A model generated the notes under the pieces. That model did no database searches and was not told where the DNA came from. It was given only the letters and a program-made list of their open reading frames with translations. A DNA stretch of 64,000 nt, from the NCBI GenBank assembly GCA_964016885.1, contig OZ024764.1:21080001-21144000 (forward strand). Direction: 5' to 3'. The position numbers were made by a program, and so were the translations under genes. Numbering within the stretch: position 1 is the first letter of the stretch; every line of letters begins with the position of its first letter. Below are positions 10,698 through 50,767 of the stretch, piece after piece. This DNA comes from Eledone cirrhosa (taxonomy: Eukaryota).

Positions 10698-11477
10698 TTA
10701 AACTTCTGTATGAATACGTACATGCTTGGTTAAGGTACCGCTTTGAGAGAATGATTTACCACAGATGTCACAGTGATATGGCTTCTCTCCTGTATGAGTA
10801 CGTTTGTGGGTAGTTAAGTGATTACTACGAGAGAATGATTTACCACAGATGTCACAGTGATATGGCTTCTCTCCTGTATGAGTACGTTTGTGGCTAGTTA
10901 AGCTACTTCTGTCAGCGAATGATTTACCACAGATGTCACAATGATATGGCTTCTCCCCTGTATGAGTATGTTTGTGGGTAGATAAGCTACTTCTGTCAGC
11001 GAATGATTTACCACAGATGTCACAATGATATGGCTTCTCCCCTGTATGAGTATGTTTGTGGGTAGATAAGCTACTTCTGTCAGCGAATGATTTACCACAG
11101 ATGTCACAATGATATGGCTTCTCCCCTGTATGAGTACGTTTGTGAGTAGTTAAGGTACTACTGCGACTGAATGATTTACCACAGATATCACAGTGATATG
11201 GTTTCTCTCCTGTATGAATATGTTTGTGAAGTGTTAAGCTACTACTGTGACTGAATGATTTGTTACAGATATCACACTTATAAGGCTTCTCTCCTGTATG
11301 AATAAGTTTGTGAGTAGTTAGGTTTTGACTACGAGAGAATGATTTACCACAGTTATCACAATGATATGGGTTCTCTCCTGTATGAATACGTTTGTGAGTA
11401 GTTAGCTGATTACTACGAGAGAATGATTTACCACAGATATCACAGTGGAATGGTGATTTTACTATATTTTTCGACAT
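10698..11477 (-). CDS. C2H2 zinc-finger protein, 9 tandem fingers, no effector domain (ZNF copy 1)
   Basis: Intact ATG-to-stop ORF of 259 aa with 9 CxxC-x12-HxxxH fingers and TGEKPY linkers. Fingers 5 and 6 are identical 84-bp repeats. Confidence 0.93.
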
Positions 11478-12578
11478 ATCTCCTACTAAAAGATATCAAT
11501 CACCTCAGTTTCTCACATAATTCAGTTTTAATATTTTTCTCCTCGCAATATATGGATATTTTTCTTCTTTATGTTTATAATATTATTCCTAAAACATATT
11601 CCTCCAGATATATTTCTATCAACTTTGGTCTTTCTTTATATTTAAAGATGATACAAACTGTTTTGTAGATCTCTTCAAGTTTAATATACATATAAAATCA
11701 TCTTGTACATATTCCAGACAGTGAAGAATCTAATTTTTCTGGTTTTTATTTGATTAGTTATTCCTGTAATAATGGAAATATTTCTACTCCTGTACTTCCA
11801 TCAACTATCATCTTTGTCAATATATGAAGATCTTACAAAATCATGTGTAAATTTCTTCTGCTTTATTTTGTATCTTCTACATATTCCAGACAGCAAAGAA
11901 TAGAAGTGTTATTGAGTTTACAAGAAATATTTCCCAGTATTTCTCCCATAGATTTATATAAACAAGGTTGTATCTGTTCTGTATAACAGCTTCCTTTAGT
12001 CTTTAAATAATGGTGTTGATGAAACAACTGATATAAAAGTGTTTTATCCTTTTCATACCAGTCTTTATATTTATCTAAAAACTTTCCATTATAACTTCAT
12101 GAAATTGTGCAAAGTTATGTTCCAAATAGCAGCTTAATACTGAGAAATTTAGTTATATTACTAAATCCCTTCAAAGTGTTGAGTGTTTTCAAAATTATTT
12201 GAAAATGATGGGTAGTGTCTTTCATTAGAAATGGTTAATGTTGAGGATATGTCTGATGTAACGTGCTCTTTAATGCCAATGTCCTCCGGTATTCTGAAAT
12301 AATAAAAGAACATTATAAGATACTCAGAAACTTGTAATACATCAGTACAAATTTCATATAATATTTCTATATATATAAATGGACTGTAATAAATACTAAG
12401 GCCTTCCTTGGTGAAGAATGTGCTGACTAACATAGGTTAGTTATTAGTGGCAGTAGATTAAACTGACTGATAAAAGTAGTTATTAGTGAGATTAGATTAA
12501 ACTGACTGATAAAAGTAGTTATTAGTGACATTAGATTATACTGACTGATAAAAGTAGTTATTAGTGACATTAGATTAA

Positions 12579-12784
12579 CCCTTTAGTATTCACATTACTC
12601 TATATTTACTATTATATTTTCACAGTAAATGCTTTATCTCTCATAATGTCAAATCTGAGATTTTCATGTTATTTATTTTGAGAACAATACCTTAACATAA
12701 GTATAAGTGACCAGTTACTGCCAGTTTGAACAGAAAGATGTGGGAGAAATCTGGCCAGATATGGCCATTTTATATACTAAAGGG
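12579..12784. mobile_element. piggyBac-type MITE (also 34976-35181 and 51616-51823)
   Basis: TTAA|CCCTTTAGTAT ... ATACTAAAGGG|TTAA: terminal inverted repeats with TTAA on both sides. Confidence 0.8.
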
Positions 12785-12788
12785 TTAA

Positions 12789-13270
12789 AGAAATTAGGTG
12801 TAGAAGAATGGCTTTTGAGAAGCTGTCAGTAAAGTGTGATTAGTGAGGAATTGAAGGTACAGGTAGGAGTTCATCATGGTTTAGTTCTTAGCCCACTGTT
12901 GTTCATCATAGTTCTCCAAGCCATAACAGAGAGGTTTAAGACTGGCTGTCTATGGAAACTTCTCTATGTAGATGACCAACTATAGATATAGAATTTGAAA
13001 TGGTAAGTTCTGAGAATATACTTAGCCAAAACTAAAATGGTAATGGATAGGAGAGAAGACCCTGACCCCTACAGGAAAGTGGCTCTGCTCCATATGTAGA
13101 AAAGGAATAAGTAGAGATAACCACAATGACAGAGACCTAGTTATAATAAACCTACCAACCACCTAATAACCTACCAATCAGGTGAGCACATGAGACAGAT
13201 TGACTTCTTGCTAGTTAGGGAGTAAGACAGATAGATGGTGTCAAATACTAAGGCATACCCCAGGGAACAA
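12789..13270 (+). mobile_element. Rearranged RTE fragments, RT piece before EN piece (also 35186-35813)
   Basis: KLGVEEWL..QVGVHHG.VLSPLLF..LYVDD, then a SGEH..QIDFLL-like segment; truncated version of 51828-54256. Confidence 0.8.
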
Positions 13271-47921: not shown

Positions 47922-48009
47922 AATATATATATATATTTGTGTTTGTGTGTGTATATGTATATTATGTATCTTCTGATTACTGAAGATGGTGCATTAGATT
48001 TCACTGTCA

Positions 48010-48665
48010 ACACTGTAAAGAGGTTGTGTAGGTGTCATGACAAAAAGTACCCAATCCACACTGTAAAGTGGTCACATTGGTGTCATGGCAAAAAGTACCC
48101 AGTCCACCCTGTAAAGTGGTCATGTAGGTGTCACGATAAAAATTAGCCAGTACTCACTGTAAAGTGGTACTGTAGGTGTCACAACAAAAATACCCAGTAC
48201 ACACTGTAAAGTGGTCATGTAGGTGTCACGACAAAAAGTACCCAATCCACACTGTAAAGTGGTCACATTGGTGTCATGGCAAAAAGTACCCAGTCCACCC
48301 TGTAAAGTGGTACTGTAGGTGTCACGATAAAAAGTACCCAGTACTCACTGTAAAGTGGTCATGTTGGTGTCACAACAAAAAGTACCCAGTACTCACTGTA
48401 AAGTGGTACTGTAGGTGCCATGACAAAAAGTAAAAAAGTACCCAGCCCACACTGTGAAGTGGTCGAGTTGGTGAGATAGTAAAAAGCACCCAGTACTCAA
48501 TGTAAATAAGGTTGGTGCTAGGAAGGGCATCCAGCTGTAGAAACCAAACCATAATTGGTTTTGTAGGAGCAACACGTGGTCACCTGACCTGGCATTGCTT
48601 ACAACAGGATAACTTGTCTAACCCATGCCAGCGTGGAAAAACTGATGTAAAACAGTGATGATGAT
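48010..48665 (+). repeat. 48-bp minisatellite (about 10 copies) plus SINE-like tail
   Basis: Same motif; explains the periodic ORFs at 47937-48433. Confidence 0.85.
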
Positions 48666-50155
48666 ATAACATTTGTTTAATAATGAATTCCAATCTCATT
48701 GTTAACAGCTATAGATGTCAGGATGTGAACCTTTTTACTGAAATATCTTCTCCATGTTAGTGGCTGAAGAAGATTTAGAAAACTTTCACACAATAACAGT
48801 ATTCCCTAACTTCTCCCCTAAAAAATACAAGACAAGCAGGGCCAGACTTTTGCCTACTGAAGCCCTAAGCTATATGAAGTTAGAGGTTCTTCTCTAAAAA
48901 TATATAATTATCTTTTATATTAATGTTAATGATAAAGAATAAATAATATAATAAATATACCACCATAGGTGCTGAGGTGGCTAGCTGCTGGTGTGAACCT
49001 CACAAGATGGAATAGCTCTTCCAGCACATCTAGAACAACATGACCCTCTAATATCTAGTATTTAGTAACAAACTAGACCACCCGGGACCTGTTGGGTCAC
49101 GTTCCCTTAAAACTATTTTTTAAAAGTCATTTAAAAATGATTTTTAAATAGTTAAAATATACACATACGTATATATATATATACACACACACACATTTTA
49201 TTAAACAACACCACCAGCTCTCTCTCTCTCTTCCATCTGTCTCCTCACTCTCACAACCACTATCTCTTTCTCTCCCTATATATATCAAGGTACCCAGAAA
49301 ACCTTGTATCTTGGGAACCTGTGCTCCAATTTATACAAAAATTGTTTTATTCCTTTCAAAGTATTTCCCCATTATGCACTGTTTTAGCTGTATTAAATTA
49401 GACAAGACACAATTACAGAGTTTTAGTAGTATATAGATAACATAGCTTCAAATTAAAGTTAGTAAACGACAGTTTGGAGAAATCTGTAACATTTATTAAA
49501 CATTGCTCAAGTTTGTCAATTCTATAGCACAATAGTTTGTTAGTTAAAGTGTTTAGTTAGATGTTCTACATATAAAGAATAGAGAATACTTTACCACAAA
49601 TATTACAGTGGTATAATGATTACAGCGGTATAATGATGTAAGCTGTCAGCCAGATGAATGTTGCCTTGGTGATGGAATAGTACAGTAGATAGAAGTTGAA
49701 ATCTAAAAGACCTGAAGGGGAATAACAATATCAAATAGTTAAAATGGAAGCTAGATATTAGGCTTACAAGTTATTGATTTCTGTTGTTATTGTTAAAATC
49801 TGTTTAATCTGTGATATTTGAGACAAGGTACAGGACAATAGAATTAATATCAATGTCTGACTAGCAACAACAAAAGTTTTCATTTTTTTGGCAGGTTTAA
49901 ATTACAAAAGTTCCCAACCTTTACTAAAAATACAAATATATATCTTACCTGTTAAAGTATAATAAATCAAAGTTTAATGTGAAAAACTTTAATTTACAAA
50001 AAATCTTCAAACACTGCTTCAAAAATGGAAACCTGGTGTTTATGATCCCTGTCCTAGGTAAAACCTACAAGGTTGACCCCAGTTTTAGCAAGGATGATGG
50101 ATCTACACAATTGTTGTTGTAGTAGTATGATGTAATGAGTTTGATATTGATACAG

Positions 50156-50767
50156 CTAAACTTCTGTATGAATACGTACATGCTTGGTTAAGTTACCACT
50201 TTGAGAGAATGATTTACCACAGATGTCACAGTGATATGGCTTCTCTCCTGTACGAGTACGTTTGTGGAGAGTTAGGTGATTACTATGAGAGAATGATTTA
50301 CCACAGATATCACAATGATATGGGTTCTCTCCTGCATGAATACGTTTGTGAGTAGTTAGGTTATTACTACAAGTGAATGATTTACCACAGATATCACAAT
50401 GATATGGGTTCTCTCCTGTATGAATACGTTTGTGAGTAGTTAGGTTATTATTTTTAGAGAACATTTTACCACAGATATCACAGTGATATGGTTTCTCTCC
50501 TGTATGAATACGTTTGTGAGTAGTTAAGGTATTATTCAGACTGAATGATTTACCACAAATGTCACAGTGATATGGTTTCTCTCCTGTATGAATACGTTTG
50601 TGAGTAGTTAGGTTATGACTATGAGAGAATGATTTACCACAGATATCACACTTATAAGGCTTCTCTCCTGTATGAATACGTTTGTGAGTAGTTAGGTGAT
50701 TACTACGAGAGAATGATTTACCACAGATATCACAGTGGAATGGTGATTTAACTATATTTTTCGACAT
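50156..50767 (-). CDS. C2H2 zinc-finger protein, 7 fingers, finger 6 lacks its second His (ZNF copy 3)
   Basis: Intact 203 aa ORF with the same termini; finger 6 ends HKRTR instead of HxxxH. Confidence 0.9.

Follow-up and report, generated by a model that had tools for sequence, protein, structure and literature searches.

Recently duplicated octopod-type zinc-finger genes in Eledone cirrhosa with probable diversification of base-contacting residues

A 64,000-nucleotide (nt) stretch of the Eledone cirrhosa genome (GenBank assembly GCA_964016885.1, contig OZ024764.1, positions 21,080,001–21,144,000 of the forward strand; hereafter the window, numbered from its first letter) carries three C2H2 zinc-finger open reading frames (ORFs), which we call ZNF1, ZNF2 and ZNF3. 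Our analysis indicates that these are recent tandem paralogues, probably of octopod type, whose arrays have likely been diversified by recombination in 84-bp units together with selection on base-contacting residues, and that they would encode small sequence-specific DNA-binding proteins without a fused effector.

All three coding sequences lie on the reverse strand and were delimited by six-frame scan and translation: ZNF1 at 10698–11477 (259 amino acids (aa), nine C2H2 fingers), ZNF2 at 32947–33894 (315 aa, 11 C2H2 fingers) and ZNF3 at 50156–50767 (203 aa, seven fingers). An earlier sequence-only reading of this DNA had described paralogues of 9, 11 and 7 fingers with near-identical flanks and termini, and the description held: every frame is open, the N- and C-termini are identical or almost identical, and all 27 of the recognition helices that it listed agree with the translations. 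C-x2-C-x12-H-x3-H repeats with TGEKP-type linkers, the Kruppel-type pattern, are found in 26 of the 27 fingers, and 107 of the 108 zinc ligands are kept. Pfam placed PF00096 and PF13465 above cut-off and listed zinc-finger-type families only, while an ESM Atlas search returned generic C2H2 clusters with a low recognition score; none of the three exact proteins was present in the protein collection searched. At the DNA level, the arrays are 84-bp repeats with 85–89% matches (Tandem Repeats Finder), and fingers 5 and 6 of ZNF1 are identical (84/84 nt). Variation had also been said to concentrate on the recognition helix and finger types to be shared between genes, and both statements were borne out: column entropy is highest at helix positions -1 (2.58 bits), +3 (2.27), +2 (2.00) and +6 (1.44) and only 0–0.23 bits at the zinc ligands, the KNNN fingers of ZNF2 and ZNF3 differ at 1 of 75 nt, and the DRSS fingers of ZNF1 and ZNF2 show 2–6 nt differences. 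Several of the helices resemble what we take to be classic base-reading helices.

In self-alignment of the window, the three genes fall into separate duplicated units of about 17–22 kb that follow one another head to tail. The core duplicated segment around ZNF1 (7615–13148) is paralogous to about 30227–35545 and to 48201–52187, the paralogous flanks and common transposon copies differ by 2.3–5.5% substitution divergence in all three pairings, and each unit has insertions and deletions of its own. The array extends past the three genes, with unit fragments at both window edges: since there is a first-exon copy at 1143 and a copy of the ZNF downstream flank (a 48-bp repeat with adjoining DNA) at 63343–64000, further units lie on both sides and the window touches at least five; one more ZNF gene would be expected beyond the right edge. 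In genomic pattern, nothing sets the locus apart from other young ZNF clusters.

Diversifying selection is likely to have acted on the pool of fingers; it may or may not have continued past the latest duplications. Codon models were fitted to 26 distinct fingers (the identical pair collapsed) over 25 codons, with the linker excluded and a shared synonymous clock. At the contact positions -1, +2, +3 and +6, omega (the nonsynonymous rate divided by the synonymous one) was 3.8 and 4.6 on two guide trees, with values of 0.09–0.13 at structural codons. Eight further fits, in which the CpG-prone position -1 was dropped or the helix block was given its own clock, returned contact omegas of 2.2–4.2 (P < 0.05 in seven of the eight), for a range of 2.2–4.6 over all fits, nine of ten significant. 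Independent closest pairs of fingers gave ratios of nonsynonymous to synonymous differences (pN/pS) of 2.5 (10 pairs, P = 0.012) and 2.4 (13 pairs, P = 0.0013). An excess of nonsynonymous change at contact positions, which the sequence-only reading had named as the check on its proposal, is thus found both by codon-model fits and by independent pairs.

Recombination has left traces within and between the arrays. In a PHI-like permutation test on 32 informative sites, compatibility between neighbours exceeds that seen after shuffling (P = 0.0006), ZNF1 finger 7 can be assembled exactly from pieces of ZNF1 finger 5 and ZNF2 finger 9, and ZNF3 finger 2 has its 5' end in common with ZNF1 finger 3. 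Finger number changes by whole 84-bp units. First and last fingers have a partner in another gene at 1–3 differences, the middle of the arrays differs in finger number and type among paralogues, and the 27 fingers fall into 17 groups at four or fewer differences. For eight of the 27, no finger of another gene is as close as the flank divergence would predict (P < 0.05 each, uncorrected). This pattern can be accounted for in part by differential loss from a long ancestor.

We propose the following course of events. Head-to-tail copying, visible in the duplications themselves, multiplied a 17–22 kb unit made of one ZNF gene and already-broken transposons. Unequal crossing-over would have gained and lost fingers as complete units, and the mosaic fingers would have come from exchange inside single arrays, from one array to another and probably also with ZNF loci beyond the window. 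Purifying selection on the fold combined with diversifying selection at -1, +2, +3 and +6, as the codon models suggest, would have acted on these products, and each protein may now bind a different DNA word.

An expansion of C2H2 zinc fingers in octopods was reportedly described by Albertin in 2015. In a search with residues 1–48, Octopus accounted for 20 of the 120 matches listed and for all eight of those at 76% identity or more. A nine-residue framework signature occurs in 18 of the 26 canonical window fingers, in 15 of 57 Octopus fingers and in none of the 1300 other fingers that were fetched; for 23 of the 27 window fingers the best match was from Octopus, and for the remaining 4 it was tied. 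Because of these high-identity Octopus matches, the signature and the best matches per finger, ZNF1–3 are likely members of the published octopod expansion. In Octopus bimaculoides, this expansion comprises 1,453 C2H2 proteins with octopus-specific clades and nervous-system expression (PMC12513265, available text), and octopus C2H2 genes are reported to be clustered on chromosomes (PMC9068888, PMC13218726, available text). The Eledone genes resemble those of O. bimaculoides, O. sinensis and O. vulgaris, as far as the consulted portions of PMC12513265 and PMC9068888 describe them, in framework signature, TGEKP linkers, tandem clustering (here at least five units of 17–22 kb) and lack of a recognised effector, and the Octopus proteins are their closest named relatives. 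In the literature searched, we found no description of finger-level selection or recombination in octopus.

The effector question proved less simple than the sequence-only reading had it. Its statement that no KRAB, ZAD, SCAN or SET domain is visible was confirmed with Pfam for all three proteins and for 104 upstream stop-free segments of at least 45 aa, in which BTB and SSXRD were not found either. The label "effector-less" thus stands for known domains and needs qualifying otherwise, given a likely leader remnant that may make the bare state a derived loss. In many Octopus C2H2 proteins, a conserved, charged stretch of about 33 residues at the N-terminus, the leader, passes directly into the first finger. 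Leave-one-out profiles recovered six of eight leader candidates as top match among 242 proteins (of the two that failed, one was excluded from the later profile), and a six-leader profile run against 1.84 billion representatives matched 13 proteins, nine of them new: six named Octopus zinc-finger proteins, two unnamed proteins that share this leader, and a 1,752-aa unnamed protein in which the match is internal. Of the 20 Octopus matches from the residues 1–48 search, the final profile detects 7, all of them training sequences. A word search with the leader returned only its own query (one candidate), Pfam has no family for it (0/6 at E up to 1), and no description was found in the literature searched, a search outside of which lay the supplements of the octopus ZNF papers and Albertin 2015. 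Seven of 15 leaders contain a psi-K-x-E word, presumably the SUMO-site consensus; counted without a null, it is a lead only.

Compared with these Octopus relatives, ZNF1–3 have just nine residues ahead of the first finger, most of the leader apparently having been lost; no intact in-frame leader was recovered at the three loci by single-frame profile matching. Likely remnants lie out of frame upstream of each gene on the reverse strand, at 11509–11523 (an E-L-C-E-K motif upstream of the ZNF1 ATG), 33926–33940 (ZNF2) and 50799–50813 (ZNF3): the most conserved word of the leader stands out of frame 46 nt 5' of each ATG, its Met absent. A four-residue leader pattern, picked after it had been noticed, has seven occurrences over 127,996 translated positions, of which the ZNF sites account for three, and a profile allowing one break scores weakly (some 5 bits; P = 0.02 relative to 600 random loci and 0.05 relative to 600 shuffles). 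We regard the remnant as probably real; in that case, absence of the leader is a derived loss common to all three copies. This subfamily would have lost most of its N-terminal leader and would start at an internal Met, and the leader-less proteins would work by site occupancy or through partners that bind the fingers.

Several observations weigh against our interpretation. The strictest codon model (helix block only, -1 removed, F3x4) gave an omega of 2.2 with P = 0.065, tree-based omega is inflated by recombination, which the models left out, and some changes at -1 are CpG-type transitions. Because synonymous divergence is also raised in contact codons (0.084–0.116, compared with 0.042–0.069 elsewhere), the local pN/pS is about 1.8–1.9; over all pairs, the local contact value is 1.2. 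The total mosaic-gain test was not significant (P = 0.094), a full-length homology search had no Octopus protein among the best 120 matches listed, swamped as it was by long generic arrays, and the predicted 5' untranslated regions (UTRs) contain 14, 2 and 9 upstream ATGs in the three copies. The five youngest pairs of fingers carry only three contact changes, and ZNF3 finger 6 is broken, with Arg in place of the second zinc-binding His, which leaves 26 of 27 fingers canonical. These last two observations would also be expected if the genes were neutral by-products, young duplicates drifting towards pseudogenes, with helix diversity that was inherited and moved about by recombination under no current selection. 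The apparently broken leader in all three copies, the large 5' deletions of ZNF2 and ZNF3 and an omega of 0.45–0.84 in the non-structural framework point the same way. Yet structural codons are constrained, with omega near 0.1, all zinc ligands except one are retained, and every copy keeps a predicted promoter, donor and acceptor. Moreover, flank rates of substitution and frameshift would predict 3.8 disabling events in the 2,331 coding nt of the three ORFs, and none was found (P = 0.02, a value that ignores the choice of the locus for being open and so must be discounted). Neutral drift strikes us as unlikely, though it is the likeliest of the rivals. The sequence-only reading had contrasted these open frames with decaying transposons around them. 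The frames are indeed open, and the contrast is weak, because the breaks that were checked predate the duplication: two copies of a long interspersed nuclear element (LINE)-like sequence are interrupted by an identical pair of stops in the coding frame, and the first frame of two hAT-like copies ends at the same stop. Most of the damage to the transposons is older than the copying of the unit. That the tandem arrangement is an assembly artefact, with alleles or collapsed repeats placed in a row, might be suspected in so repetitive a region, where a 1.1-kb block is 99% identical between units, but the flank divergence seen in every pairing and the unit-specific insertions and deletions make this barely credible.

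Two further explanations would give the proteins a different mode of action. The sequence-only reading had likened the cluster to PRDM9, that is, a coding minisatellite in concerted evolution, whose products here would join a separate catalytic partner in marking sites of recombination or chromatin. The 84-bp units, the variable finger number and the enrichment of diversity at -1, +2, +3 and +6 are common to both (PMC5519329 and PMC11703093, available text), one finger is exactly duplicated, and the contact-residue share of amino-acid diversity over 24 positions (0.43, 0.41 and 0.52 for the three genes) exceeds the 95th percentile (0.40) of 182 fetched ZNF proteins. Over all 28 positions, with last fingers excluded, the share is 0.37–0.41, at the low end of PRDM9 values, which are given as 0.687 in human and 0.91 in mouse, falling to 0.33 in some orthologues (PMC5519329), and as 0.49–0.55 in salmonids (PMC11703093). 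PRDM9-type concerted turnover found no support in the form proposed: fingers differ by 13.2 of 75 nt within genes (112 pairs) and 12.9 between genes (239 pairs), identity outside contact codons is only 87–89%, and the available text of PMC5519329 reports rapid array evolution only where all four PRDM9 domains are present, while in this multigene cluster no KRAB, SSXRD or PR/SET domain was found in the proteins and segments searched. We thus consider a PRDM9-type system very improbable, and would treat "PRDM9-like" as analogy only. Somewhat less improbable, though still doubtful in the extreme, is that the ORFs are last exons to which an upstream coding exon with an unrecognised effector is spliced. 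Between an in-frame stop and the ATG there are indeed AG dinucleotides, 8 and 5 nt ahead of the latter, and both KRAB-ZNF and FiNZ-ZNF genes carry their effector in an upstream exon (PMC10547256, available text). Those AG sites have no strong pyrimidine tract, however, the Octopus leader is continuous with the first finger, the exon that holds the fingers also holds the likely remnant, and the sole real domain in the upstream segments of at least 45 aa is a PHD finger, present in two of three introns; it was rejected as an effector since it sits inside the LINE-like element that is missing from the ZNF3 intron. Domain hits on the translation of a 39-bp repeat were likewise rejected as low-complexity.

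Our preferred interpretation, tandem paralogues diversified by recombination and selection, has published parallels. Young mouse KRAB-ZNF clusters appear to be a closer one than PRDM9: they arise by segmental duplication with transposons carried along, and their arrays drift and shift (PMC5363842 and PMC12575710, available text). ZNF1–3 resemble them in duplication that carried older transposons, in array drift and shift, in new fingerprints among close paralogues and in the hallmark of positive selection at fingerprint residues (omega 2.2–4.6 here), and differ in being invertebrate and in lacking KRAB in the proteins and segments searched. The FiNZ-ZNFs of cyprinids form a KRAB-independent, lineage-specific family with positive selection at contact residues, features that ZNF1–3 have in common with them; FiNZ lies in its own exon, and repression of transposons was demonstrated by knock-down (PMC10547256, available text). 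The Octopus leader, a candidate effector, resembles FiNZ in that both are short, charged and N-terminal; the leader is apparently broken in ZNF1–3. Predicted octopus ZNF motifs were reported to be enriched in transposon consensus sequences (PMC10547256), so that KRAB-independent transposon recognition by octopus ZNFs stands as a computational prediction in that paper and as an open question in the available text of PMC12513265.

The predicted gene model consists of a non-coding first exon and one large coding exon. A block closing with a donor-like GTAAGT occurs four times on the reverse strand, as predicted promoter and short non-coding first exon of ZNF1 (18883–18990), in paralogous form for ZNF2 (38622–38760) and ZNF3 (58767–58900), and as a fourth copy at 1143–1280, whose gene would lie left of the window. 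Strong acceptor-like sites stand upstream of the ORFs at 12293 (ZNF1), 34105 (ZNF2) and 51330 (ZNF3). The predicted 5' untranslated part of the ZNF1 coding exon would span 11478–12293 (reverse strand), and its counterparts are shorter by 605 nt in ZNF2 and 253 nt in ZNF3. A joint at 11524–12130 in sequencing runs X2 and X5, which may derive from the source material itself, agrees with the ZNF2 5' deletion, with a short side of just 27 letters; run X1 (guessed to be RNA, under another organism code, share 0.05) has no joint at the predicted donor or acceptor and is uninformative either way. Contig records from sequencing runs over 9000–14100 number 29,634, 36,643 and 6,855, mostly on the fingers, which fits a big family and gives no copy number. 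Downstream, a donor-like CAGGTAAG is kept in all three flanks about 205–210 nt 3' of each stop codon, with AATAAA about 60 nt beyond it in ZNF1 and ZNF2; this site could mark a 3' UTR intron or an alternative end.

The units also contain a range of repeats. A broken element of the non-LTR (long terminal repeat) type at 14033–17361 and 35842–37441, confined to the predicted introns of ZNF1 and ZNF2, has an endonuclease-like region towards its C-terminal end and a PHD finger (PF00628, E 2.5e-07, 37148–37471) towards its N-terminal end, and a broken hAT-like transposase with a Spin-doc zinc finger (PF18658) lies at 26641–29222 and 60755–63342, the copies 2.3% apart. An inverted repeat at 40283–45544 (arms 40283–42079 and 43874–45544, 92.5% identical, flanked by TA runs) encloses a 370-codon open frame at 42057–43169 on the forward strand. 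The C-terminal half of this frame looks like what we take to be a Penelope-type GIY-YIG endonuclease; the candidate region (42600–43166) had no hits in a PDB sequence search or in Pfam, and no reverse transcriptase was seen with the frame. An element of about 214 bp with TTAA ends and short terminal inverted repeats sits in the predicted intron of each ZNF copy (12575–12788, 34972–35185 and 51612–51827), with very high summed contig depth in DNA-like runs; we assume it to be a piggyBac-like miniature inverted-repeat transposable element. Adjoining it is a 39-bp minisatellite (12438–12578, 3.6 copies; 34250–34975, 18.6; 51475–51614, 3.6), which in ZNF2 yields a 246-codon stop-free frame that is probably no gene. 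The 1.1-kb block mentioned above is AT-rich and intronic (1–1136, 17417–18554 and 37476–38615), with neighbours at about 95–97% identity, and may reflect either recent gene conversion or a young insertion. A 370-bp block with 98–99% identity recurs at 2044–2412, 19752–20121, 25857–26226, 39594–39963 and 59446–59815, upstream of the predicted promoters and at one site elsewhere. Two repeats resembling short interspersed nuclear elements lie directly past the predicted ZNF1 first-exon donor (18550–18870), with very high contig depth in run X1, and Rfam had no matches in the window.

What drove the octopod C2H2 expansion, and how its proteins act without KRAB, is an open question according to the available text of PMC12513265, and the present locus adds finger-level evidence of selection and recombination to the published expansion. 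Young repeats seem the most likely single class of target, at somewhat less than even odds; neuronal gene regulation and no function at all are alternatives. The three proteins of the cluster are nearly isogenic but differ in fingerprint, which suits them well to binding assays, and the conserved Octopus leader is a concrete candidate effector. We also entertain, as a speculation with little in its favour so far, that octopods have a FiNZ-like effector of their own, a charged leader recruiting a repressor to transposons, and that ZNF1–3 are a leader-less offshoot whose contact residues are still diversifying under selection. If this were true, ZNF1–3 would act as decoys or competitors of their leader-bearing relatives, or bare arrays would suffice against transposons.

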